From positions 1 through 57,622 of the IMG/VR virus record IMGVR_UViG_3300048837_002337: 57,622 bases of DNA. The stretch is one strand, 5' to 3'. The stretch's first letter is position 1. Each line of letters starts with the position of its first letter. The translations under genes and the position numbers were made by a program. Below the pieces are notes generated by a model. That model did no database searches, was not told the origin of the DNA, and saw only the letters and a list, made by a program, of their open reading frames with translations. This document shows positions 30,346-44,674 of the stretch, piece by piece. This stretch comes from a virus (taxonomy: Duplodnaviria; Caudoviricetes).

Positions 30346-31049
30346 TGAACCTGCTTGGCAAGATGGGCGGCGGCGCGTCCGGCGGCATGCCCCGCCCGGT
30401 CCCGCGGCCCTCCTCCTTCGACATGCCCGGCCAGGAACGCACAGCCGGCGGCCTCTTCGGCTCCATGTCCTCGCAGCAGCGCTACGACCTCGCCCGCTCG
30501 ATGCTGGAACAGGGCATGGCGCAAGCCTCCGGCTCGACCAGCCCGCTCCTGCAGTTCCTCGCCCCGGTCGTGGGCGCGATGGGCATGGGGCGTCTGGAAG
30601 CCAAGCACGGCGCCGCCCGCGACGCCGAGATCGCCGCGATGACCGGGAAGCTGAACGGCGGCCAGCCGCTCGACCCGGCGATGCAGGGCTATGCCGACAT
30701 CCTCAACAACGAGAACGCGCCCGAGTACCTGCGCACGCTGGCGAAGGAACGGCTTCTCGAAACCATGCGGCCCTCGAAGGCGGGCGGCGGCGGCTCGGCC
30801 GCGCCCGGGCGCGCGCCCTCGAACACCGACGCGCTTCTCGCCTCGATGTTCTACAACGCCGGGCTTGAGACGAGCGACGGCGGCGTCGCGATCACGCCCG
30901 CCGAACAGGCCCGCATCGACGCCGTGACCCGCGCCCGCAGCCGGTCCAGCAGCGTCTCCTACGACTACGGGGCGCCTTCCGTCGGCTCCGAGAGCGACCC
31001 GCTGATGATCTCGCCCACCCCCGACAACGATCCGCTTGGAATCCGCTGA
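30345..31049 (+). CDS. Second ejection protein
   Basis: G/A/M-rich; ends DNDPLGIR; coupled on both sides. Confidence 0.7.
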   Translation: MNLLGKMGGGASGGMPRPVPRPSSFDMPGQERTAGGLFGSMSSQQRYDLARSMLEQGMAQASGSTSPLLQFLAPVVGAMGMGRLEAKHGAARDAEIAAMTGKLNGGQPLDPAMQGYADILNNENAPEYLRTLAKERLLETMRPSKAGGGGSAAPGRAPSNTDALLASMFYNAGLETSDGGVAITPAEQARIDAVTRARSRSSSVSYDYGAPSVGSESDPLMISPTPDNDPLGIR

Positions 31050-34000
31050 TGGCTGACCTGACGATTGCCGACGTTCGCGCCAAGTTCCCGCAGTACGACG
31101 ACCTGTCGGACCAGCAGCTTGCGGACGCGGTGCACCAGAAGTTCTACGCCGACGTGCCGCGCCCTGACTTCTACGCCCGGATCGGCCTCGCGGTGGCGCC
31201 CTCGGCCGCCAATCCGACCGCGGCCCCGGAAGACACCGCCGGCTTCTCCTCGGATCTCCTCGCGGCAATGGGTGGTAGCACCCCGGCACCGCCCAGGACG
31301 CCCGCCCCGGCGCAGATCGACGCGCCCGCCGCGCGCCCGATGCAGCCCGGAAGCCTCATCGAGGCGATGACCGGGCATGACGCGGCCCCGGTGATCGACC
31401 GGACCCGCCCGCCGAGCCCGCCCGTGCGCCCGCGCGAGGGCGGGCTCGAATTCGGCATGATGGGTGGTGCCTCGCCGGAGACGGAGGCCTGGGCGCGGCG
31501 CGAGATCGCACGTCAGGAGGCCGAACGCATTGATTTGGTTCGACCGAAGGACTCCCCCGGCATTGCCCCGGCATTGCAGCGGCAAGCCACCACCGCCGCG
31601 CCGGACCCGTTCGCGGGCGAGGGCATGGGCGATATGGCCGCCCGTCGTGGCCAGCAGTTCGCGCGCGGCGCCACCACCGTCATCGCCTCGGTGCCGGAGG
31701 CGCTGGAACTTCTCGGCCGCGACATCGTGCGCACGCGCCTGCCGACCTTCAACCAGGCCGGCGCGGCGCTGTCGGCCGAGCGCGAAACCCTTCTCGGGAT
31801 CATCGAGGCCGAGGGCGCGGAGAGCCAGCGCGGCCGTGCCGCCGCGTTGCGGCTGCAGGCGGTCGATGGCGAACTGATCCGCGCCGCCCGCCTCGTCCAG
31901 GAGGACGCGGCGCGCCTCGAAATCCCGCTCGAAGACACCAAGGGCTTCAAGGCCGGGAAGGCGCTGCGCGCCGCCTCCGAGGAGACGTTCGGGACGCCCG
32001 ACCCGCGCGACACCGGCTTCTGGGCCAAGCTGGCCGAGGGCGGCGGCAGCGTCGCGGGCTTCGCCGGCGCCTCGCTTCTCGGCGCCCCCCTGGGCCCCGG
32101 CGGCGTCCTCCTCAGCGGCGGGCTGACGGGTGCCGCGACGAATTCTTCGCAACTATACCAGGAGGCCATCCAGGCGGGTGCGGACGAGGAAACCGCCCTG
32201 CGCGCGGCGCGCATCGGCGGCCTCGTCGGCTCCTCCGAGGTGCTGCCGATCGGGCGGGCGCTGAAACTCCTGCCCAAGGGCATGCGCAACAAGGTCGGCG
32301 GCTTCTTCTTCAAGCGCCTCACCCATATCGCGGAATCGGCCGGCGAGGAAGCGGCGCAGGAATTTGCGATGCAGGTGGCCAACAACTGGGTTGCCAAGGG
32401 GTTGTATGACCCGGAGCGCGGCTGGTTCGATGGTGCAGGCGAAAGCGCCCTGATCGGCGCCATCCTCGGCGGCGGCATGGGTGCCATCGGCTCCGCGCGT
32501 GGCGAGGGCAAGGCCGACCAACTGCCCATGCGCACGCCGGACGAACCGCGCGAGCGGCAACCGCAGCAACCGCCCGCGCCGCTGACCGACCCGCTCCTGG
32601 CGGCGATGGGCGCTCCGGCACCTGAAGCCCCGGCTCCTGCGCAGCCCGCGCCCGCGCAACCGCAGGCCCCGGCTCCGGAGGCGGCACCGGTCCAGCCCGC
32701 GGCTACAACAAAGGCGCCGGAAGCAGCACCCGCGGCGCCGGAAGCCCAGCCGCAGGCCGATGCCGGCCGCTACGAGATCATGGACGAGGTCGAGACGGTC
32801 GACGGCGAGACGCGCCCGACCGGTCGCAAGGTCCGCATCGACATGGAGACAGGACAGGCGTCCGTGGTGGACGCCAACGAGGCCGCGGCGGGTTCCGACG
32901 CTGCAGGCGCGCCTGGTGGCGCTGATGCTGGTCAGCAAGGCCAGGAGAGCCAGCCGCAGGGCAGGGAGGCGAAAGGGGTGACGTCGCCCGCGCCCGCGGC
33001 TGGCGGCGCGCGCCCGGCGCCGCAGCGCAAGTTCCTCTCCCACGAGGAGACGCTGGCCATCGAAACCGACCCCGACACCTTCCAGTACAAGGGCGGATCG
33101 GACACCGAGGGCGTCACCAGCGCCCTCAAGGGCGTCAGCCGCTTCGATCCCAACCGCGCCGGCCAAGTGGTGATCTTCGAGACGAAGGACGGCCGCCGCA
33201 TCGTCGCCGACGGCCACCAGCGCACCGGGCTCGCCCGCCGCATGGCGGATGCCGGGCAGGAGGATGTCGGCGGCATGGCGGCGGTGATCTACCGCGAGGC
33301 CGACGGCTACACGCCCGAGGAGGTGATGGCGCTCGCCGCGCTGAAGAACATCGGCGAGGGCTCCGGTTCGGCGGTCGATGCCGCCCGCGTCCTGCGCAGC
33401 CGCAGCGAGACGATCGAGGATCTGGGCCTGCCGCCGAATTCCGCCCTGGTGCGCGATGCCGAGGGGCTGCGCCGCCTCTCCGTCGACGCCTTCGGCATGG
33501 TGGTGAACGGGGCGGCGAGCGAGCAGCACGGCGCCATCGTCGGCCGCGCGGTGCCGAACCAGGAGGTGCAGGCCAATATCCTCGGCCTGCTTTCCCGGCT
33601 GAAGCCCGCGAACGCCTTCCAGGCCGAAACCATCGCCCGCCAGGCGGCGGCCGAGACGACCACCGAGACGCAGGACTCGCTGTTCGGCCCCGAGGAGATC
33701 GCCACCAGCCTCTACCTCGAACGCGCCAAGGTGCTCGACGGCGCCGTGAAGGCGATCCGCGACGACATCCGCACCCTGACCGACCGCGCCGATGCGATCA
33801 CCGGCGCCGGTAACGTGCTGGCGAAGGACGAAAACACCCGCCGACTGGACGCAGACGCGAAATTGCGCGACTATCTGACGTCCCAGGCCAACATGAAGGG
33901 GCCAATCAGCGATGCACTCGGACAAGCAGCCCGCGCCGTCAAGGACGGAACGCCCGTCGCAGCGGCAACTCGACGCTTTGTCGAAGATGTCCGCAGAGCG

Positions 34001-37000
34001 CTTGAAGGCGATGGGACAGGAGGCCAAGCGTCTTCGGGAGGAAGAGGCGAGCCTGAAGGCCAGCCGCGCCAAGAGCCGGTAAGCCCGCCCGAGGGCGATC
34101 TGCTGGCCGCCATGGGGGCGACGCCGCAGACGCAGACGCCCGCCGCGAAGCCCGAACCGGATCTTCTCGCCGCGATGGGGGCGGCACCGGCGAAAAACCC
34201 GGAGCCGGATGCGAAGGCGAAGGCCGAGGCCCAGGTCAAGGCGAAGCAGTCGAAGATGGGCACGACGACGCCGCAGGGCGACGCCGGTCCGCTCTTCAAC
34301 GCGCAAGCCGACATCGAGGACGCCAAACCCGCGCTCGCGACGACAGCCGCCGTGCGTCGCGCCGCTCTCATCGACGAACACACCAAGGGCCCGGAAACCC
34401 CGCCGGAGGAATTCGCCGACCTCTTCGACCAGCCCGAAGGGCAGAAGCTGATCGCGAAGATGGAGGGCAAGACCCCGAAGGAGCGCCGCGCCATCGCCGA
34501 TGACTGGGTGCTGAAGACGGGTCGCAAGGCCGGATCAGAACACCTCGTCGTCTTCGACGCGCAGGGCGTGCCGGTCATCATCGCCCGCGGCGGTCGCGCC
34601 TCCATCTGGGTGCCGGAATGGGCCTATTTTGCCGGCGACGCCGGCGATCTCGGCTATGCGACCCACAACCACCCCGGCGACGGCGGGCTGTCGGCGCAAG
34701 ACCTCGTCTCGATGATGGCGATGCAGATCGAGATCAAGGCGATGGGGCACGCGGACGTCGTCCACGGGGCCAAGCCGGGTCCGGTCAAGCCCAGGAACGG
34801 GCTGCCGCCGCACAGCGAACGCACGCTCACCTTCAGCGAGGCGATCCGCTATGGCGCCGACCGCGTCCACGCCGGACTTCAGGACCGCATCAATGGCCTG
34901 ACGGGAGACGCCTTCACGCAGAGGGCGGCGCTCTACAAGCGGGCGCACTATGCCATCCTCAACGTCATCCTTCACCGGATGGGCATCATCGAATACACTG
35001 GCGACGCCGACAGGGTGATCGCCGAAGCGGGAGTTCAGGTCGATGACTTCATCGAAACAGTCGAAGCGGTCGTTCTTGATGGGTTTGGACGGGCCGGATT
35101 CCTTGTCTCCGAGATCCGAGATCACCTCCGCGCTGGAAAGCCTGAAGGCGATGGAGCCGACACCGGCGGTCGAGGCCGAGCGGAAGCGGCTGAACCGGCT
35201 GATGGAGACGGCGACCGAGGCGGGCGGGTTCGCCAGGACGGCAAGCCAGAGGTAAAGGACGACTTCGGCGCCGCGCTCGATGACCTCTTCGGCGCGAAGC
35301 CGGAGAAGCCCGCGCGCTCGAAATCAGACATCGCGAAAGACCTGGGCGACATCTTCGGCGAGGATGGCGACCTCTTCAACATGCCGGAACAGCCGAAATC
35401 CGGCCTGACGGCGCGCGAGCGGGCCGAGATCGAGGCGCGCCAGCGGCAAAGCAAGATCCGCCGCGCCAACCAGACCCGGGTCGAGGACGACCTGCAAAGC
35501 CTCTTCGGTCACGACCGCCAGGGCAACCTGTTCGGCGAGGGCGACATCGACGAGGCCAAGTACGCGCGCGCTGCGCCGGTCTTCAAGGAGGCCCTGGCCG
35601 ACATCGACGTCGCGAACACGCCGCGCAAGGACGTCTTCATCGCCATGATCCGCCCGCTCATCGCGGCCGGGCTCAATCGCCAGGCGATCGAGAACATGCG
35701 CCCCTACTTTGAGCGCTTCTTGAACGACGTCGACCGTGGTATCATCTCTCTTGCGAAGGGAACGGAAGATGCACAACGCACCGACGGCAATCTGGAACGC
35801 GATCGCGGAGACGCAGCCGCTCAAGACGGCCTGGGCAAAGCAGATGTTCCCGCTGCCGGAAGACCTGATGGAAAAGGCGCTGGAACGGGAAGAGGCGCGC
35901 CTGATCAAGGAGACGGGCGACAGCCGGGTGGCGAGCGCCTACCTTCTGGTGATGCCGCTCCTGTGGGAACAGAAGGCAATCCGCCGGTTCAAGGAAGCCG
36001 GGGGGCCGGGAAACAGCCTGCCGATGGTGGAAACCGCGCAGCAGGCCGCAATCCTCGCGAGCCGGGAATATCCCCTGACGAAAGCGCAACTGAAGCTACT
36101 GTCCGACATGCTCAGGACGGCCCCGAACTAAAGGGCCGCGCCGCCGCGCAACGCGCCGCCGACGAGCGGGCCCGGCGCGGCATCAAGCTGGGCGACGAGG
36201 AGGACGTGCGGGCCACCCTGCCGCTCCTCAAGCCCGAACAGCAGGACGACGTCGTCAAGATCGAGCGCCGCTTCGCCAAGCCGGACGGCCACGGCATGAT
36301 GCTGACCAACGGCACCGGCACCGGCAAGACCTATTCCGGCGGCGGTGTGATCAAGCGCTTCGCCCAGGCCGGCAAGACCAACATCCTCGTCATCGCCCCC
36401 TCCCAGGGCATCCTCGACCACTGGGCCGAGGCGCTGCACGATCTCGGGCTGAAGGCGAGCAAGCTGGACGACACGAAGACGGCCGGCGAGGGGATCGTGC
36501 TGACCACCTACGCCAACGTCGGCAAAAACCGCGCGCTGGCCTCGCGCGAATGGGATTTGATCGTTTCCGACGAGGCCCACAAGTTGAGCCAGAACGCGCA
36601 AGGCGACGCCACCTCGGCGCTCGACACGCTCCGCGCCATCTCGCACCGGCCGTCCGACCTCTGGCGCAAGTCCGAGATGATGCGCGCCGCGGAATGGGAC
36701 CGGCTGCGGGCGATGAAGGACGGCGAGGCCAAGACCGCGCTCGCCCATCGCCTCTACGAACAGCGCAAGCAGGACGTCGAACGGCTCTCGCAGCGCCCGC
36801 GCGCGAAGGTGCTCTTCCTCTCGGCCACGCCCTTCGCCTACGTCAAGAACACCGACTATGCCGAAGGCTACCTCTTCGACTATCCGAAGGATGGCCATGT
36901 CGGGAACAGCCGCCAGGGCGGGCAAGCGCTCTTCATGGTGGAGAACTTCGGCTACCGCATCCGCTATCACAAACTGACCCGGCCGGACGCGAACGTCGAC

Positions 37001-40000
37001 ACCGGCGTCTTCGAGCGCGAGTTCCACGAGAAGCTGAAGCGCGAGGGCGTGCTGTCGGGCCGTCACCTCGATGTCGAACCGGACTACGAGCGCCGCTTCG
37101 TGCAGACCGAGGACGCGCAGGGCACGCTGATCGACGACATCCTCAAGTTCATCCGCGAACAGGCCTACGGGCAGGGGCCGGACAAGGACGCCTATGCGGC
37201 GCTTCTGACCTCTGTCGGGAAAAGTTTCAACTATCTCAAGCGCATGCAGCTTCTGGAAGCGATCAAGGCGAAGATCGCGCAGCAGGACATCGACAAGCAT
37301 CTGGCCATGGGCCGGAAGGTCGTCCTGTTCCATGATTTCAACCGGGGGGGCGGATTTAACCCCTTCGCGCCGCACGACGAGGCGGCGCTTGAAGGCTATG
37401 CGAAACTGCTCGCGGCGCGCCCAGAGGTCGCCGATCTGAACTTCCGCGGCTACCTGCCGCCGGTCCAGGAACTGAAGCAGCGCTACGGCAAGCGCGCTGT
37501 GATCTACAACGGCACGATCCCGAACAAGGAGCGCGACAAGGCGAAGACGGCCTTCAACACCGACGGCTCCGGCACCGACATCATGATCGTGCAATCGGCC
37601 GCCGGCGAGGCCGGGATTTCGCTCCACGACATCAGCGGCGGCCACCAGCGCGTGCTGATCAACCTCGGCATGCCGACCCGGCCGACGACGGCGCTGCAGG
37701 AGGAGGGCCGCATCCGCCGCGAGGGCTCCGTCTCCGACGCGCTCTTCCACTACTACACCATCGGCACCACCTGGGAGCGCCAGGCCTTCGCCCGCAAGAT
37801 CGCTGAACGCTCCGGCACGGTCGAGAACCTGGCGCTGGGCAACGAGGCGCGCACCATCCGCGACGCCTTCATCGACGCCTATGAGGAGGCTTCGCCCTGG
37901 GCCCCGGGCGAGGGTGACGGCAAGGGCGGCAAGGAGCGCGACCGGGCGGTCGCCAAGGCCTCGCCCTACGAGATCGCCAAGACCCACTACTTCGGGCGCA
38001 TGAAGACGGCGGGCCGGCGCGACCAGCGCCAGGGCATCGACTTCTACCCGACGCCGGAACCGCTCGCCTTCAAGATGGTGGAATGGGCGCAGATCCGGCC
38101 CTACGAGCGCGTCCTGGAACCCAGCGCGGGCGATGGCTCGATCGCGCGCTACTTCCCCGACCACTCCGACCGCACCATCGTGGAGCCGTCGGTGGAACTC
38201 CTGTCCAAGGCGGAACTCCGGGCGATCGGCGCGCGGGCGGTAAACTCGACCTTCGAGGCCTATCACGTCGTCAACAAGCATCATGCGATCATCATGAACC
38301 CGCCCTTCGGCTCGGGCGGCAAGACGGCGATCGAGCATCTGGCCAAGGCCGCCACCCATCTCAGGCCCGGGGGGCGCATTGTGGCGCTCATCCCGACAGG
38401 GCCGGCGGCCGACAAGCGCTTCGATGCCTGGTGGGACAGTGACGAAAGCGAAGGCCTGTGGCGTTCCGCCGAGGTTGCGCTTCCTGCCGTCACCTTCGAG
38501 AAGGCCGGGACGGCGGTCGCCGCGCGCATCCTCATCATCGACAAGGTCGATCCGGTCGCCAGCGACCTCCTCGGCTCCACCAGCCGCATCAACATGACCG
38601 GCGCGCAGAGCATCGGCCAGTTCTTCGACCGCCTCGAAGGCATCGCGGCTCCGGCCCGGCCGAAGGCAGCGCGCGAGGCGGTGGAAGAACTCCTCGACGA
38701 GCAGGAAGAGGCCAACCCGGCCCTGGCCGCGCCCGAACGCCCGGCCCAGCCGCTGCCGGATCAGGGCTTCAGCCTGGCGCAGACCACGCACGGCAAGACC
38801 GGCGAGGCGCTGTTCGTCGCCACCGCCACCGCGCGCGTCAGCGACGAGGCCTTCAAGGCCACGGTCGCGGTCGCGAAGCGTCACGGCGGCTGGTACTCGT
38901 CCTTCCGCGGCAAGGGCGCGGTTCCCGGCTACCAGTTCAAGAGCGAGGCGCAGCGCCAGGCCTTCCTCGACGACATGGGGAAGCCGACGACCGGGCTGCA
39001 GGAAGAGGCCGCCGGCTTTGCCCGGCCGGTCTTCTTCTCGCCGCTCCTGCGCGCGGTCGAAGGCGCCAAGCAGGCCCGCGCACCGGCGAAGGACTGGAAG
39101 GCGATCATCGCCAAGCTGCCGGGCGTGAAGAAGGCGGAAATGGAGTGGACCGGCGTTCTCGACTGGCTCGACACCGCCGACGGCCAGGTCGAACGCGCCG
39201 ACATCGTGGCCTTCCTGCGCGCCAACCAGATCGAGATCATCGAGGAGCGCCAGACCGAGGAGGGCGAGGACTTCGATCCGGACGAACAGGCGGCCGAGGA
39301 GGCGCTGGGGCACGACCTCATCGAGGAGCCGGACTTCGAAATCTCCGATGGCGAGCCGCTCTATCCGGACGACTGGGACGACGAGGCGGAGTTCTATCTC
39401 GACGAGGCGCGGGAAACGCTGGCCGAGGAGGCGATGGAGGACTGGGACGAGGAGGAGATGGGCGAATTCGATCCCGCGTCGATCGCCGATGACGAGGTCA
39501 TGGACCTCGCCAGGCAGATCGCCGAGGAGCGCTACGAGCCGCATGAGTATTCCGTCACGCTCTACGACCGCAACGGCGATGCCTCCTACGACGGCTACTG
39601 GAACGCCGACGACCGCAGCTATTACTTCCCCGCCCTGTCGGACGAGAACATCGACCACAGCGATGCGCTGAACCTCGCCACCGCGCCGATCATGGAGGCC
39701 CGCCAGAAACAGGTCGAGGAGAAGCTGAAGGAGTTGCTGGCCGAGCACAAGGCCAGCCAGGAGCGCCAGAGGGCCGAGGACGGCTTCGCGGTGGTCGGGT
39801 CGGCGCGGTGGCGCACCTACACCCAGGGCGGCGGCGAGAACTACCAGGAGGTGCTGCTGCGCATCCCGCTCCTGCACAAGATCGGCAAGAACCGGACTGT
39901 GCCCGTGCAGGACGTGGCGGAACTCAAGCGGATCGAATCCGAGATGGACCGCCTCATCAAGGAGAAGGGAACCCGTGTAAAGTACACCGAAGAGTACATG

Positions 40001-43000
40001 GCCCTGCAACGGCAGTCGACGGCGCTCACCGATGGCGTGATGGGCAAAATCCCCTTCGTGCAGTCCTCGCACTTCAGCCGCACCAACGTCGTCGTGCATG
40101 CGCGGATCAAGGACCGCCAGGACAAGGCCGGCAACCGCGTGCTCTTCATCGAGGAAATCCAGTCCGACCTGGCCTCGAAATGGCGGGAGAACACCGAGAG
40201 TGTCGAGGTCACACTTCGCAGACGCGCCCTTGAGGAGGCGTTCGAGAATCTGGCGGCAGCCGACAGGGAGGACTGGAACATCCTCGAAAACGCCGTGTCG
40301 GAACATGCCAGGGCAGCCGGCGCGAACACATGGAAGGCTTCGGTGAATGAGTTTTTGGGGAACTCCACCCCGAGCGAGCCGGACTATTTCCACAGCGACA
40401 AGACGCGCGCCGCTGTAGCCTCGTTCAATGCCGATCCGAAGGTGCAGCGCGCGGTCGAGCGGATGAAGCGCAGGGGAGGCGAGAGGACGCAGTTGAGGGG
40501 TGAACTGACCGCCCTCGGCACCGAGAAGCGCATCGACCCGATGGTGCCGCAATCGCCCTTCTCCGACCCGGAACAGTACACCGTCATGGTCAAGCGGCTC
40601 CTGCGCGAGGCGGCGGCCAGGGGCTACGGCAAGATCGCCTGGACGCCCGGCTACATGCAGGCCGAGCGCTGGAACAACGCCGCGCAAAGCGTTGTGTCGC
40701 GGATCGAATGGGAGCCCTCGACGTCCGGCACCGCGGGCGCGTCCCGCGACGTGCTCTTCCTCATGGCCGGCGGCGGCAGGGAATTTTCCGCAACGGTCGA
40801 CGCCGAGGGCAAGATCCTCGCGACCGATGCCGAACCGTTCCAGGGCAAGACCCTGCAGGCGATCATCGGGCCTTCGCTGGCCAAGCAGGTGCTTGGCGAG
40901 GAGAAGGGCAACGTCGGCGGGCAGAAGATCGTGCTGCCGGATTCCGGCTATGCCATCGCCTATGACGGCCACATCCGCCGCGCCGTCGACAAGCTGACCC
41001 GCGTCCACGGCGTCAAGGCCGAGCCCGACACCTCGATCTACGACCTGATCACCGACCGGCTGGGCGCGCGCTCGACCTATCTCGAAGGCCTGACCACCGA
41101 GGAGATCATCGACCGCATCGCCAATGTCGAGCCAGCCCGCACCGAGCGGCTGCGCAACCTTCTGCGCGAAGACCCGACCAACGAGCCCTATATCCGCTCC
41201 ATCGCCACGGAGCCGATTTCCGACGCCGCTTTCGTGCGCCTCTTCCGCGACAGGATGGAGGACGGCCCGCAAGTCTGGTCGGTCGAGATCAACGACGCGC
41301 TGCGTGCCGCGGCGACCGAGCCGATGCCGCTTTTCCAGCGCCAGGCGCTGCGCCGCACCAGGCCGGTTTCGCGGGAAACCATCCGCCGCATGATGCCCAG
41401 GCTCAGGGCCGAACTGGACCGCCTCGATCTGAAGCGCGTGCACCTCTTCGAGGTCGACCCGGCGCGCTATCCGATGGGCGGGCAGGACGACTGGCAGGGT
41501 CTCGTCCAGCACGGCGAGAACGGCGATCTGGAAATCATCATCGGCGCCTCGCTCGATCCGATGAAGACGATCCATCACGAGGTTATCCACATCCTGCGGG
41601 GGATGAACCTGTTCACGCCCGAGGAGTGGCGCGCGCTCGAACTATCGGCCGCGCGCAAGTGGGTGAAGGAATTCGACATCGTCGCGCGCTATCCAAACCT
41701 CACGCCCTCCGAGCAGATCGAGGAGGCCATCGCCGAGGCCTTCGCCGAGGCCGTGGCGACGAAGAAGGCGCCCGCCGGGTCGGCCGTCATCCGCGCCTTC
41801 AACAAGATCGCGCGGCTCCTCAAGGCCATCGCCAACGTCTTCCGCGGCGCGGGCTTCAACACCGTCGAGGACGTTTTCGGGCGGGTGATCGCGGGCGAAC
41901 TCAGCCGCCGCAACGCCGCCAACACCGGCGCCCTGGCGATGCAGCGCGGCAGCAAGGCACAAGCCGCCCGTGTTCCGAACCGCCAGGCCCGCGCCCACAT
42001 GGCAACCGCCATGGGCGGCAACGCGGCCCATATCCCCGACCGGCGCGTCTGGGAGGAACTGACCCGCACCGGGGCGCCGATCTGGCAGCGCCTGCGCCAG
42101 GGCGCCGGGGCCGCGCATGACGCCGTCGACAAGGCGCGGATCAAGATGCAGGACCGTTTCCTGCCCGTGCTCCGGGCCCAGGAGGCGGTGGTGCGCACGA
42201 CCGGCGCCACCCTCAGCGCGGACCAGAACGCCTACCTGAAGGAAACCACCTTCTCCGGCAAGGTCGGCCGCCACCTCTTCGAGATCGACGAGGAATACAC
42301 CAAGCCGATCATCGACATCATCGCGAAGACCAAGGGCGCGCTGACCTCGGAGGCCGTCGGCGAATGGCTCTACGCCCGCCATGCGATCGAGCGCAACGCG
42401 CGCATCGCCGCCATCAACCCGCGCATGCCGGACGGCGGGTCGGGGATGACGGATGCCGAGGCGCAGCAGATCCTCGCCGATGCCGCCGCGGGCCCCTTCG
42501 CGGCCGATCTGGACCGGATCGGCACCCTGATCGACGGGCTGCGCGAGCGGACGCTGAAACTGCGCGAGGATGCGGGCCTGATCACGCATCGCGAGGCGAA
42601 CCTGTGGCGCCACCAGTACCGGCACTATGTCCCGCTCAAGGGCTTTTCCGAGACGGATCACAGCGAAGCCGTGCTCGACATCGCCGGGGTCGGGCGCCGC
42701 TTCAACACCCGCGGGGCCGAGTCGCGCCGCGCGCTGGGGCGTCGGTCGGAGGCCTTCAACCCGCTTCAGGCGGCGATCACCCAGGCGCAGGAAGTGTCCA
42801 TCCGCGCCGAGAAGAACCGGGTCGGCCAGGCGCTCTACAATCTGGCAAAGGATTTCCCGTCCAAGGCGCTATGGTCGGTGAAGAAGCCGAAGATGAAGCA
42901 GGTCTACAACCGCACGACCGGCCTCGTCGAAAGCCGTCTCGAAGATCCGGTATCGCTCCTGATGGACCCGAACGAAATGGCGGTGAAGATTTCCGGCAAG

Positions 43001-44674
43001 GAGGTGCGCATCGTCTTCCACGATCCGCGCCTGGCACAGGCCGCCGGCAGCGTCGGCGCCGACCAGATCGGCTGGTTCGTCGGCTTCATGTCGATGGCCT
43101 CCCGCTTCTTCAGTTCCATCAACACGATGCTCGACCCGGAATTCGTGGTGCGCAACGCGGCCAGGGACATGACGGCCGCGCAACTGAACATCCGCAACTT
43201 CGGCGAGGCCGACCGCAACGCCATCGCGAAGGCGATGATCCGGAACTGGCCCAAGGCCTTCGTCGGCGCCTTCCGGGGCCAGGGCTACAAGGCCGACAGC
43301 ACCTGGACGCGCTACTATCGCGAATTCGAGAAGGCCGGCGCCAAGGTGTCGTTCTGGAAGCTGGAACAGCCCGAGGCGGGCAAGTCGGATCTCGACAAGC
43401 GCATCCGCCTGGCCGGCGGCTCGCGCCTGGGACCGGTCAGCCGCTTCGTGCGCCTCTCGACCCGCGACAATCCCGTGCTGGGCTTCATCGAGCGGACCAA
43501 CCTCGCGGTCGACAACGCCGTGCGCCTCGCCGCCTTCGTCGCCGCCCGCCAGCGCGGGTGGAGCGCCCAGGACGCCGCGGCCCTCTCGAAGAACCTCACG
43601 GTCAACTTCAACCGCCGCGGCGAATGGGGGGCGACGATCAACGCGCTCTATCCCTTCGCCAATGCCGCCACCCAGGGCTCGCAGGTGCTCCTGCGCGCGA
43701 TCACGCACAAGCGCATGGCCAAATATACCATTGGCCTCATTGCCTTGGGTGTCATTCTTGATGCAGTCAACGCGGGCCTTTCCGGCGAGGATGACGACGG
43801 CGAACTGGCTTATGACAAGATCCCCGACTTCAAGAACCAGACCAACATGGTGGTGATGCTGGGGCCCGACTCCGACAACGGCGCGACGCTCTGGATGCCC
43901 TACGGCTGGAACCTCTTCCCCTACATCGGCCAGCAGATCGGCAAGGTGCGGCGCGGGGTGAAGGGGATGGACGAGGCGCTGGGTGATGTCGCCACCGCCT
44001 TCTTCACCGCCTTCTCGCCGATCCAGGGCGGGTCGCTTCAGTCTGTCATCACGCCCACCATGCTCGACCCGATCAACGAGATGGCGATGAACGAGGACTG
44101 GCTGGGCCGCCCGATCCGGCCGGAGAACGCCTATTCCGACTACGGGCCCGACGCCTACAAGTTCTTCGGCGGCGCCTCGGAGGCCTCGAAACTCCTCGCC
44201 GACACGATGAACCGCGCCACCGGCGGCACCATCGGCGAGAGCGGCGCGGTCGACATCTCGCCGGAGTACATCGACCACTTCTTCGGCTTCATCACCGGCG
44301 GGGCAGGGCGCTTCGTCGGCCGCGTGTCCGACCTGGTGGCGAAGGCCGCGGCGGGGAATTTCGAGGAGATCGAGCAAAGGGATGTTCCCGTCGCGCGCTC
44401 GCTCTACTATGAAACCGGAGACTGGCTCGACCGCGACCGCTACTATCGCTTCCGCGACGAGGTCAGGGAAGCCAATGCCGCGGCGAAGGCCTATCAGGAG
44501 GCGGGGGACAGGGTGCCGGATCATGTGAAGCGGCTCGCGGCGCTCTATCCGACGATGCTGCAGGCCGAACGGGCGATCAAGGCGATGAAGAAGGCCGGTT
44601 CCCAGGACCAGGGCAAGGTGTTCATCGCCTTCAACCGTCGCTTCCTCTCGGTGATGGGGAAGCAGGGTGAGTAA
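31049..44674 (+). CDS. 4541-aa polyvalent internal-virion/ejection protein (DarB-like): ParB-like, JAB/MPN, SF2 helicase, N6-MTase, LPD-like, HExxH peptidase and LPD38-like domains
   Basis: DGHQR (~33210), E...HNHP...S..D (~34540-34700), GTGTGKT (~36310), DEAH (~36570), SATP, QEEGR (~37700), EPSAGDG/NPPF (~38120-38310), IEEIQSD (~40150), HEVIH...EE (~41580-41725). Confidence 0.92.
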   Translation: MADLTIADVRAKFPQYDDLSDQQLADAVHQKFYADVPRPDFYARIGLAVAPSAANPTAAPEDTAGFSSDLLAAMGGSTPAPPRTPAPAQIDAPAARPMQPGSLIEAMTGHDAAPVIDRTRPPSPPVRPREGGLEFGMMGGASPETEAWARREIARQEAERIDLVRPKDSPGIAPALQRQATTAAPDPFAGEGMGDMAARRGQQFARGATTVIASVPEALELLGRDIVRTRLPTFNQAGAALSAERETLLGIIEAEGAESQRGRAAALRLQAVDGELIRAARLVQEDAARLEIPLEDTKGFKAGKALRAASEETFGTPDPRDTGFWAKLAEGGGSVAGFAGASLLGAPLGPGGVLLSGGLTGAATNSSQLYQEAIQAGADEETALRAARIGGLVGSSEVLPIGRALKLLPKGMRNKVGGFFFKRLTHIAESAGEEAAQEFAMQVANNWVAKGLYDPERGWFDGAGESALIGAILGGGMGAIGSARGEGKADQLPMRTPDEPRERQPQQPPAPLTDPLLAAMGAPAPEAPAPAQPAPAQPQAPAPEAAPVQPAATTKAPEAAPAAPEAQPQADAGRYEIMDEVETVDGETRPTGRKVRIDMETGQASVVDANEAAAGSDAAGAPGGADAGQQGQESQPQGREAKGVTSPAPAAGGARPAPQRKFLSHEETLAIETDPDTFQYKGGSDTEGVTSALKGVSRFDPNRAGQVVIFETKDGRRIVADGHQRTGLARRMADAGQEDVGGMAAVIYREADGYTPEEVMALAALKNIGEGSGSAVDAARVLRSRSETIEDLGLPPNSALVRDAEGLRRLSVDAFGMVVNGAASEQHGAIVGRAVPNQEVQANILGLLSRLKPANAFQAETIARQAAAETTTETQDSLFGPEEIATSLYLERAKVLDGAVKAIRDDIRTLTDRADAITGAGNVLAKDENTRRLDADAKLRDYLTSQANMKGPISDALGQAARAVKDGTPVAAATRRFVEDVRRALEGDGTGGQASSGGRGEPEGQPRQEPVSPPEGDLLAAMGATPQTQTPAAKPEPDLLAAMGAAPAKNPEPDAKAKAEAQVKAKQSKMGTTTPQGDAGPLFNAQADIEDAKPALATTAAVRRAALIDEHTKGPETPPEEFADLFDQPEGQKLIAKMEGKTPKERRAIADDWVLKTGRKAGSEHLVVFDAQGVPVIIARGGRASIWVPEWAYFAGDAGDLGYATHNHPGDGGLSAQDLVSMMAMQIEIKAMGHADVVHGAKPGPVKPRNGLPPHSERTLTFSEAIRYGADRVHAGLQDRINGLTGDAFTQRAALYKRAHYAILNVILHRMGIIEYTGDADRVIAEAGVQVDDFIETVEAVVLDGFGRAGFLVSEIRDHLRAGKPEGDGADTGGRGRAEAAEPADGDGDRGGRVRQDGKPEVKDDFGAALDDLFGAKPEKPARSKSDIAKDLGDIFGEDGDLFNMPEQPKSGLTARERAEIEARQRQSKIRRANQTRVEDDLQSLFGHDRQGNLFGEGDIDEAKYARAAPVFKEALADIDVANTPRKDVFIAMIRPLIAAGLNRQAIENMRPYFERFLNDVDRGIISLAKGTEDAQRTDGNLERDRGDAAAQDGLGKADVPAAGRPDGKGAGTGRGAPDQGDGRQPGGERLPSGDAAPVGTEGNPPVQGSRGAGKQPADGGNRAAGRNPREPGISPDESATEATVRHAQDGPELKGRAAAQRAADERARRGIKLGDEEDVRATLPLLKPEQQDDVVKIERRFAKPDGHGMMLTNGTGTGKTYSGGGVIKRFAQAGKTNILVIAPSQGILDHWAEALHDLGLKASKLDDTKTAGEGIVLTTYANVGKNRALASREWDLIVSDEAHKLSQNAQGDATSALDTLRAISHRPSDLWRKSEMMRAAEWDRLRAMKDGEAKTALAHRLYEQRKQDVERLSQRPRAKVLFLSATPFAYVKNTDYAEGYLFDYPKDGHVGNSRQGGQALFMVENFGYRIRYHKLTRPDANVDTGVFEREFHEKLKREGVLSGRHLDVEPDYERRFVQTEDAQGTLIDDILKFIREQAYGQGPDKDAYAALLTSVGKSFNYLKRMQLLEAIKAKIAQQDIDKHLAMGRKVVLFHDFNRGGGFNPFAPHDEAALEGYAKLLAARPEVADLNFRGYLPPVQELKQRYGKRAVIYNGTIPNKERDKAKTAFNTDGSGTDIMIVQSAAGEAGISLHDISGGHQRVLINLGMPTRPTTALQEEGRIRREGSVSDALFHYYTIGTTWERQAFARKIAERSGTVENLALGNEARTIRDAFIDAYEEASPWAPGEGDGKGGKERDRAVAKASPYEIAKTHYFGRMKTAGRRDQRQGIDFYPTPEPLAFKMVEWAQIRPYERVLEPSAGDGSIARYFPDHSDRTIVEPSVELLSKAELRAIGARAVNSTFEAYHVVNKHHAIIMNPPFGSGGKTAIEHLAKAATHLRPGGRIVALIPTGPAADKRFDAWWDSDESEGLWRSAEVALPAVTFEKAGTAVAARILIIDKVDPVASDLLGSTSRINMTGAQSIGQFFDRLEGIAAPARPKAAREAVEELLDEQEEANPALAAPERPAQPLPDQGFSLAQTTHGKTGEALFVATATARVSDEAFKATVAVAKRHGGWYSSFRGKGAVPGYQFKSEAQRQAFLDDMGKPTTGLQEEAAGFARPVFFSPLLRAVEGAKQARAPAKDWKAIIAKLPGVKKAEMEWTGVLDWLDTADGQVERADIVAFLRANQIEIIEERQTEEGEDFDPDEQAAEEALGHDLIEEPDFEISDGEPLYPDDWDDEAEFYLDEARETLAEEAMEDWDEEEMGEFDPASIADDEVMDLARQIAEERYEPHEYSVTLYDRNGDASYDGYWNADDRSYYFPALSDENIDHSDALNLATAPIMEARQKQVEEKLKELLAEHKASQERQRAEDGFAVVGSARWRTYTQGGGENYQEVLLRIPLLHKIGKNRTVPVQDVAELKRIESEMDRLIKEKGTRVKYTEEYMALQRQSTALTDGVMGKIPFVQSSHFSRTNVVVHARIKDRQDKAGNRVLFIEEIQSDLASKWRENTESVEVTLRRRALEEAFENLAAADREDWNILENAVSEHARAAGANTWKASVNEFLGNSTPSEPDYFHSDKTRAAVASFNADPKVQRAVERMKRRGGERTQLRGELTALGTEKRIDPMVPQSPFSDPEQYTVMVKRLLREAAARGYGKIAWTPGYMQAERWNNAAQSVVSRIEWEPSTSGTAGASRDVLFLMAGGGREFSATVDAEGKILATDAEPFQGKTLQAIIGPSLAKQVLGEEKGNVGGQKIVLPDSGYAIAYDGHIRRAVDKLTRVHGVKAEPDTSIYDLITDRLGARSTYLEGLTTEEIIDRIANVEPARTERLRNLLREDPTNEPYIRSIATEPISDAAFVRLFRDRMEDGPQVWSVEINDALRAAATEPMPLFQRQALRRTRPVSRETIRRMMPRLRAELDRLDLKRVHLFEVDPARYPMGGQDDWQGLVQHGENGDLEIIIGASLDPMKTIHHEVIHILRGMNLFTPEEWRALELSAARKWVKEFDIVARYPNLTPSEQIEEAIAEAFAEAVATKKAPAGSAVIRAFNKIARLLKAIANVFRGAGFNTVEDVFGRVIAGELSRRNAANTGALAMQRGSKAQAARVPNRQARAHMATAMGGNAAHIPDRRVWEELTRTGAPIWQRLRQGAGAAHDAVDKARIKMQDRFLPVLRAQEAVVRTTGATLSADQNAYLKETTFSGKVGRHLFEIDEEYTKPIIDIIAKTKGALTSEAVGEWLYARHAIERNARIAAINPRMPDGGSGMTDAEAQQILADAAAGPFAADLDRIGTLIDGLRERTLKLREDAGLITHREANLWRHQYRHYVPLKGFSETDHSEAVLDIAGVGRRFNTRGAESRRALGRRSEAFNPLQAAITQAQEVSIRAEKNRVGQALYNLAKDFPSKALWSVKKPKMKQVYNRTTGLVESRLEDPVSLLMDPNEMAVKISGKEVRIVFHDPRLAQAAGSVGADQIGWFVGFMSMASRFFSSINTMLDPEFVVRNAARDMTAAQLNIRNFGEADRNAIAKAMIRNWPKAFVGAFRGQGYKADSTWTRYYREFEKAGAKVSFWKLEQPEAGKSDLDKRIRLAGGSRLGPVSRFVRLSTRDNPVLGFIERTNLAVDNAVRLAAFVAARQRGWSAQDAAALSKNLTVNFNRRGEWGATINALYPFANAATQGSQVLLRAITHKRMAKYTIGLIALGVILDAVNAGLSGEDDDGELAYDKIPDFKNQTNMVVMLGPDSDNGATLWMPYGWNLFPYIGQQIGKVRRGVKGMDEALGDVATAFFTAFSPIQGGSLQSVITPTMLDPINEMAMNEDWLGRPIRPENAYSDYGPDAYKFFGGASEASKLLADTMNRATGGTIGESGAVDISPEYIDHFFGFITGGAGRFVGRVSDLVAKAAAGNFEEIEQRDVPVARSLYYETGDWLDRDRYYRFRDEVREANAAAKAYQEAGDRVPDHVKRLAALYPTMLQAERAIKAMKKAGSQDQGKVFIAFNRRFLSVMGKQGE
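33912..34082 (+). CDS. Nested +1-frame gene A, 56 aa (MHSDKQPAPSRTERPSQRQLDALSKMSAERLKAMGQEAKRLREEEASLKASRAKSR)
   Basis: GAAGGGG RBS. By hand count the +1 frame has GC3 47/56 while the host frame has only 29/56 over the same codons. Not listed in the ORF track. Confidence 0.6.
   Translation: MHSDKQPAPSRTERPSQRQLDALSKMSAERLKAMGQEAKRLREEEASLKASRAKSR
35043..35255 (+). CDS. Nested +1-frame gene B, 70 aa
   Basis: GGGAG RBS 9 nt upstream; amphipathic helices; host frame degrades to a G/D/R linker. Confidence 0.65.
   Translation: MTSSKQSKRSFLMGLDGPDSLSPRSEITSALESLKAMEPTPAVEAERKRLNRLMETATEAGGFARTASQR
35769..36131 (+). CDS. Nested +1-frame gene C, 120 aa (MHNAPTAIWNAIAE...)
   Basis: GAAGGGA RBS; globular helical composition (W, L, M, E, K); host frame is G/R/D/A low-complexity here. 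Confidence 0.75.
   Translation: MHNAPTAIWNAIAETQPLKTAWAKQMFPLPEDLMEKALEREEARLIKETGDSRVASAYLLVMPLLWEQKAIRRFKEAGGPGNSLPMVETAQQAAILASREYPLTKAQLKLLSDMLRTAPN

Follow-up and report, generated by a model that had tools for sequence, protein, structure and literature searches.

In lambda-like phages the spanin gene Rz1 lies wholly inside the Rz gene in the +1 frame, and the two proteins function jointly. Where genes are overprinted in the classic manner, it is usually the newcomer that is nested and disordered. Giant DarB-like or polyvalent phage proteins are believed to be injected as a counter to host defences, and DarB of phage P1 relies on separate small accessory proteins, DarA among them. The stretch of DNA analysed here (hereafter the window) is the whole 57,622-nucleotide (57.6-kb) IMG/VR provirus record IMGVR_UViG_3300048837_002337, which was judged complete and has a GC content of 67%. 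Inside a giant open reading frame (ORF) of this provirus, a second ORF at positions 35769 to 36131, designated N, is on the sequence evidence close to certain to be a genuine same-strand overlapping gene. The best explanation of the locus as a whole is a nested, separately initiated gene whose product is a partner of the helicase-methylase module of the giant protein, a composite reading that was judged to be evenly poised.

Like Rz1, N is nested on the same strand and in the +1 frame within a late phage gene, has its own start, is widely conserved, and is easily missed. It differs in that N is not a lipoprotein, having no cysteine and, by reading, no signal-peptide-like segment, and in that its host gene encodes a 4541-amino-acid (aa) polyvalent protein, with the nested frame conserved and folded and the host frame a drifting spacer. 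Classification of N as an Rz1-type o-spanin was accordingly rejected, there being no lipobox cysteine, no signal-peptide-like segment, and a helix predicted from residue 3. An embedded spanin class is also mentioned in the accessible part of the JC1 paper (PMC9144972). Overprinting in small viruses (phiX174 B/K/E and RNA-virus overlaps; reviews are PMC8227390 and PMC2268670) is similar in that two proteins are derived from one stretch, one of them compositionally biased and probably disordered, whereas here it is the domain with ordinary-frame relatives that is nested, and the reading of the giant gene looks secondary. The host gene is comparable to P1 DarB and the polyvalent proteins in combining a helicase and an N6-adenine methylase with LPD domains in a virion module (PMC5512222, accessible part), and the accessory-protein role proposed for N would extend this likeness; the differences are that the helicase here precedes the methylase and that the accessory gene lies inside the giant gene. 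Neither overlapping genes nor a frameshift is mentioned in the accessible part of Iyer et al. 2017 (PMC5512222). The features on which the argument rests are as follows.

35769..36131, + strand: nested gene N, running from ATG to TAA (TAA at 36129-36131) and encoding a 120-aa protein with seven predicted helices.
35755..35761, + strand: Shine-Dalgarno-like sequence GAAGGGA, 7 nucleotides (nt) ahead of the N ATG.
35721..35723, + strand: last N-frame stop ahead of the ATG, so that the open stretch of the N frame begins at 35724, 15 codons upstream of the start.
31049..44674, + strand: host gene, a 4541-aa DarB-like polyvalent virion protein, identified from Pfam matches, translation, and annotated relatives.
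35768..36130, + strand: host-frame linker overprinted by N, corresponding to host residues of about 1574-1694, with 21% glycine and 7% hydrophobic residues.

N is in the +1 frame of the giant ORF since (35769-31049) mod 3 = 1, and the coordinates, frame, and translation of the 120-aa nested ORF given in a first-pass annotation of this DNA were reproduced exactly, as was the GAAGGGA ribosome binding site that it had reported. Over N, the host frame reads GTEDAQRTDGNLERDRGDAAAQDG..., a spacer rich in Gly, Asp, and Arg. N has its own translation start signals, and these recur: the start is ATG in 30/30 loci sampled through N and in all 80 loci sampled through the helicase (both samples are described below; loci are designated L followed by a number), and a 4-nt Shine-Dalgarno (SD) core was found starting at -16 to -7 in 28/30 of the former and was present in 74/80 of the latter. 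A scan of 34800-36600 by consensus match only found no sigma-70-like internal promoter. N would very probably be made by internal initiation on the late mRNA of the giant gene, yielding a free 13-kDa protein.

N could in principle be a shadow ORF arising by chance in a GC-rich gene, or a decaying relic without a functional product; this possibility has to be weighed against base composition and comparative data, and in their light it is extremely improbable. Openness was assessed by fixing the peptide encoded in one frame and redrawing its codons synonymously in 2000 trials. With the host peptide fixed, the N frame remained open in 91% of the trials for the window, which favours a chance ORF, as does the presence in other frames of the same giant gene of shadow ORFs of 261 and 344 aa, which also give tblastn matches in relatives. 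An alternative-frame match alone is therefore not evidence, and the window alone does not lift N above chance; it is the comparison that makes the case. N is placed above chance by a switch of GC phase, by the comparative data, and by a confident predicted fold. For the gene as a whole the GC content at host codon positions 1, 2, and 3 is 0.69, 0.48, and 0.87, while over 35700-36180 it is 0.85, 0.69, and 0.42, which is the normal pattern shifted into the N frame. In two phages with 46% GC (L004 and L006) the probability of an open N frame given the host peptide falls to 0.003. Another ORF of the giant gene, at 34618..35046 (142 aa, +2 frame), had no match in the fetched loci besides the window's own copy.

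Recurrence of the arrangement was examined in two samples. The N-side sample comprised 49 loci, namely the window, 6 named phages, 21 IMG/VR loci, 9 genome loci, and 12 further IMG/VR loci. The nested +1-frame arrangement with an ATG start was found in 47/49 of these (7/9 of the genome loci), with nested ORFs of about 115-138 aa and a host frame that runs on for thousands of codons without a stop; in a single case, L026, the contig ends after 30 codons. The helicase-side sample consisted of the best 80 of 431 IMG/VR stretches encoding a relative of the helicase, which were found with patterns made from helicase motifs and ranked with a query that also included the linker. All 80 contained a +1-frame match to the N profile (E, the expect value, of 1e-15 to 1e-46), and in none of them was the host frame closed across N; GC contents range over 0.38-0.69. 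The 80 loci include 70 distinct N peptides, and about 20 of the contigs were already in the N-side set. As is characteristic of an embedded gene, 47/47 nested and 80/80 helicase-sampled loci have both frames open, while the third frame contains 1-19 stops in the nested N-side loci and 1-21 over the two samples together.

A tblastn search with N of 50,697 phage records returned 8 records representing 6 phages: Ruegeria 45A6, Pseudomonas Skulduggery, Klebsiella ZX1, Serratia Parlo, Vibrio 1.232.O, and Vibrio D274. In each of the 8 records the match lies inside the annotated giant coding sequence at an offset of 1 mod 3, and a separate gene is annotated at this position in none of them (0/8). Two other N members used as queries gave an identical closed set of phages, and no match was found by tblastn with N in the plasmid collection. 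Among proteins, a collection of 5.8 billion sequences yielded 23 close homologues of 119-129 aa, unnamed and without Pfam domains, and an exhaustive search of representatives yielded 248 N clusters at E<=1e-3, of which 78 were at E<=1e-10. Most of the cluster representatives are about 120 aa long with an alignment beginning at residue 1.

The N frame is under purifying selection. Pairwise identities were computed for 435 pairs from 30 loci, leaving out the near-identical loci L011, L014, L020, L026, and L031 and the non-overlapping loci L033 and L035. The N frame had a mean amino-acid identity of 0.394, against 0.256 for the host frame and 0.290 for the untranslated third frame, and identity in the N frame exceeded that in the host frame in 434/435 pairs. 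Differences at N codon positions 1, 2, and 3 numbered 100, 99, and 211 in the 7 closest pairs, and 0, 1, and 18 between L019 and L022. Strain-level data were obtained from near-identical metagenome contigs from 4 DNA runs, one of which, a 12.6-kb contig covering 35400-36498, showed 19 differences and 0 gaps. Among the differences listed, all but 8 of the total, those outside N fall at host position 3 in 9/9 cases upstream and 11/14 downstream, and the 16 inside N fall at N position 3 (which is host position 1) in 10 cases, at position 2 in 5, and at position 1 in 1. Two control shadow ORFs, X and Y, located inside the helicase and methylase, showed the opposite pattern, with the host frame better conserved, and the shadow frame of X was broken by stops in 22/23 subject loci. 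The host frame over N is a freely drifting spacer, yet is never interrupted; the few residues that do appear conserved in it (LExD, for example) are dictated by invariant residues of N (WNxI, for example). Against a chance origin of N there thus stand the openness values of the low-GC phages, the 434 of 435 pairs, the homologous clusters, the predicted fold, and the failure of X and Y in the same tests.

The same figures could be read in another way, namely that the giant ORF is not one protein and the linker is untranslated, with an upstream gene, N, and a helicase-methylase gene in succession. This is consistent with a host-frame peptide over N that is less conserved than the third frame and in the wrong GC phase, and with a chance openness of the host frame, given the N peptide, of 0.26 in the window. 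Elsewhere, however, that openness probability does not exceed 0.16 at any of the 22 other loci and drops to 0-0.003 at each of L003-L006 and L015; moreover, no break in the host frame occurs in the 47 nested and 80 helicase-sampled loci, at GC contents down to 38%. Host-frame openness is not a by-product of N. Reading of the sequence after the N stop also revealed neither a start codon nor an SD with which a helicase gene of its own could begin, and the related giant protein gp69 of JC1 was detected in virions with 51 unique peptides (PMC9144972, accessible part), but that protein belongs to a clade without N. A division into separate genes is thus very unlikely, and the host frame is kept free of stops, so that the part upstream of N stays joined to the helicase-methylase part.

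The architecture of the host protein around N bears on a further alternative and on the proposed role of N.

35543..35767, + strand: upstream helical domain of the host protein, designated U, which ends where N begins.
36227..37846, + strand: helicase of the host protein, like those of superfamily 2 (SF2) and SNF2, residues 1727-2266, with Walker A (GTGTGKT) from nt 36311.

If ribosomes entered N from the host frame by programmed +1 frameshifting, the product would be a truncated isoform ending in U-N. Proteins in which U and N are fused in frame do exist (P0030, P0032, P0043, P0044, and the L033 ORF), and an AlphaFold2 prediction for P0032 shows one continuous helix over the U/N junction. Against frameshifting, an N-frame stop occurs 0-5 codons before the ATG in 19/80 loci and abuts it in 8/80, as TAA-ATG in L040-L046; the ATG is invariant and preceded by an SD; and no slippery motif shared by the upstream sequences was seen by reading. 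Since stops just before the ATG leave no room for entry and no slippery site was found, frameshifting was rejected as the route to N; it was rated slightly below even the division into separate genes.

The AlphaFold2 model of N (24-row alignment) had a predicted local distance difference test score (pLDDT) of 90.5 and a predicted template modelling score (pTM) of 0.85, with seven helices, the first from residue 3. The proposal in the first-pass annotation that N reads like a folded helical protein is thus borne out both by a confident fold, where disorder would have counted against it, and by purifying selection on its frame; the profile search that it had suggested found homologues in abundance (the 248 clusters) and none in curated families, N matching 0 families in Pfam, PHROGs, and NCBIfam. 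No Pfam LPD family was matched by N above threshold, and LPD3 was matched by 1/102 members of the N family (E 0.012). The C-terminal half of N has a weak likeness to the N-terminal helical domain of PrmC/HemK (PF17827), and a methylase lies downstream in the host protein. PrmC_N was matched by 3/102 members, with a best E of 0.0015, below threshold, and comparison of the N profile with the PDB gave a best E of 0.15, with HemK (2b3t/1t43) at 0.18. All of these scores are below threshold and HemK is not among the 50 structure matches listed, so that PrmC/HemK is a lead only. Foldseek searches with N gave best E values of 0.97 (PDB) and 0.57 (BFVD), the best Z in a wide VIA-align search with the N structure was 4.1, and the ESM Atlas gave no usable match. 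A Foldseek search with the natural U-N-X protein P0032 returned nothing above threshold.

The N domain was also found in ordinary ORFs. In two Bradyrhizobium genome contigs, the following were identified.

5842..6582 of L033: U-N plus an extension, an ordinary ORF.
5977..7122 of L035: N plus a 260-aa extension, an ordinary ORF.

The host-type frame is closed at both loci, with open stretches of 44 and 110 codons around the match, and N is in a non-overlapping ORF. Both ORFs are on chromosomal islands, next to either a tyrosine integrase gene or a PrimPol-DUF3631 gene accompanied by deaminase and SNF2 genes, and they look like captured pieces of a phage giant gene with the frame difference removed. 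Six further proteins (P0113, P0169, P0170, P0131, P0067, and P0033) carry the N domain in other architectures, which include tandem N-N, N ahead of both U and the beginning of a further linker, N with predicted membrane segments, N with acidic repeats, and N with a tail like the C-terminus of the ParB region of the giant protein.

The window encodes a large terminase, a portal, a major head protein, a tail protein, an amidase, a virion protein, and a tail fibre, and the giant ORF is placed between the virion protein and tail fibre genes, that is, in the virion module. Pfam matches of the host protein were LPD38 (3.4e-43, at the C-terminus), ResIII (1.5e-12), Helicase_C (3.4e-06), and, weakly, the methylase family MTS; the labels ParB-like N-terminal part, NPPF methylase, and HExxH zincin were read off the translation and are not tool matches. 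Its phage relatives carry the annotation 'DarB-like antirestriction' or 'PLxRFG protein'. The host gene therefore has the features of DarB-like polyvalent genes, which lie in a virion or late module and combine LPD domains with an SF2 helicase and a DNA methylase, and is a polyvalent virion protein gene in the sense of Iyer et al. 2017 (PMC5512222, accessible part). Cysteine is wholly absent from the 4541-aa giant protein, as it is from N.

N is strictly tied to this module and always accompanies one clade of SF2 helicase. In the phage collection, a tblastn search with the helicase domain at E<=1e-20 returned exactly the 8 records that hold N. Walker A lies exactly 180 nt downstream of the N TAA in the window, in agreement with the approximate distance first reported, and N is within about 90 codons of Walker A in 28/31 loci. 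The upstream neighbour varies (U, a different helical domain, and others), while the downstream neighbour is the helicase N-terminus in 28/31 loci; in the other three (L012, L013, and L023) N precedes U or another domain, with the helicase within about 1.3 kb downstream. A check had been proposed earlier on whether homologues of N always precede the helicase: N is present in 80/80 helicase-sampled loci and adjoins the helicase in 28/31, and it lies further upstream in 3/31. Klebsiella phage ZX1 is the sole Lastavirus among the N matches, and its giant protein, which makes up 19% of the genome, differs from those of the other three Lastaviruses (PMC9505181, accessible part). N therefore travels with this helicase-methylase module. 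In L007, about 90 codons past the N stop, unrelated sequence resembling an intein-type insertion splits Walker A directly behind TNGTGTGK.

N may work with the helicase-methylase module as a non-covalent partner, chaperone, or assembly-time regulator, and would be inseparable from it when polyvalent modules shuffle, because it is embedded in the interdomain linker; this functional part of the reading, which takes in the regulatory role put forward in the first-pass annotation, is tentative and falls somewhat short of an even chance. A complex prediction for N with the host segment containing U, linker, and helicase (795 aa; alignments A3 and A1) gave a score of 0.00, which counts neither for nor against binding. 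Several observations weigh against a partnership. In 3/31 loci N sits further upstream, before U; the N domain is also N-terminal in unrelated architectures (transmembrane segments, acidic repeats, a ParB-like tail, tandem N-N) and occurs in chromosomal islands without an adjoining helicase; and, as the naturally occurring in-frame U-N proteins show, the domain is able to act in cis. The fold and family searches offer no clue to the function of N. The helicase-side loci are the top 80 of 431 under a query that contained the linker, so that remoter helicases may lack N, and genetic linkage is the only line of evidence that points to a partner role.

Since the N domain occurs with other partners and in islands without a helicase, N need not act on the helicase. 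It could be real and separately translated but physically unrelated to the helicase-methylase, being another effector, for example an anti-defence or takeover factor, lodged in a permissive disordered spacer and co-inherited by adjacency. The other partners, the Bradyrhizobium integrase and PrimPol islands, and the three loci in which N is ahead of U and not beside the helicase speak for such an effector, as does a second conserved +1-frame ORF, B, which appears to occupy another linker in the window. It is opposed by the linkage of N to one helicase clade in 80/80 loci and 8/8 phage records, and by a distance to Walker A that stays at or below about 90 codons in 28/31 loci despite varying upstream domains. 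An unrelated effector was considered unlikely, though a serious competitor to the partner role.

35043..35255, + strand: ORF B, 70 aa with an ATG start, in the +1 frame of the giant ORF over a low-complexity host linker.

B is probably a second overprinted gene, to judge from its sequence. The linker over which it lies has a GC-phase anomaly at 34949-35308, and the B peptides of L012, L013/L014/L026, L016, L029, L023, and L009/L031 share GLDG(P/L)DS.SP(R/K).EI ... ATE.GG(F/Y/L)-stop. Both frames are open at the B locus in 9/9 loci, and identity in the B frame exceeds that in the host frame in 6/9. In L012, L013, and L023, B is directly upstream of N in the same frame. B had no match in Pfam and none in the phage collection. 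A third stretch of the giant ORF with depressed third-position GC content in the host frame (0.61-0.66) lies at 33809..34168; it is a Pro/Ala/Gly-rich spacer with a repeated DLLAAMG motif, and no + strand ORF of at least 60 aa is present there.

With regard to origin, the evidence is finely balanced on whether the overlap arose by the giant frame reading through an older N coding sequence and not by de novo birth of N. An older N is suggested because it is the folded domain, found in an ordinary frame elsewhere, that is nested, and because the host reading is unconserved and in the wrong GC phase. One described route to an overlap is that the stop codon separating two adjacent genes in different frames is lost (PMC2268670, accessible part). 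No unfused intermediate was present among the loci examined.

Embedded phage genes are already known, as in the case of Rz1 in Rz, and N itself appears undescribed in print: no description was found in the accessible parts of the polyvalent, DarB-like, PLxRFG, and overprinting literature (PMC9144972, PMC5512222, PMC9505181, and PMC13299392), the supplements of which could hold proteomic lists. N is a conserved extra protein, represented by hundreds of sequence clusters and unlisted at that place in all 8 of the phage records containing it. Every functional study of giant DarB-like proteins, which occupy about a fifth of these phage genomes, thereby gains an unknown player, and mutations or truncations made in the 'linker' of the giant protein also strike a second gene. 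N is directly testable, because knock-outs of its start or stop can be silent in the host frame. In the window and in Skulduggery, an Asp codon of the host frame has the T of the N ATG as its third base, and a stop at the codon of the invariant Trp-9 of N would change only the third base of a host Leu codon. As a clean case in which the nested frame is constrained and the giant frame is a passive spacer, the locus is useful for testing methods that detect overlapping genes. More speculatively, and with the odds clearly against so broad a reading, the linkers of giant polyvalent proteins may hide trans-acting accessory genes (N, and probably 35043..35255) that are hard-wired into the module they serve, the giant gene having arisen by reading through an older small gene and so fusing two genes without losing the middle one. 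If linkers are indeed such hiding places, a helper would move with its enzyme whenever modules are exchanged between phages.

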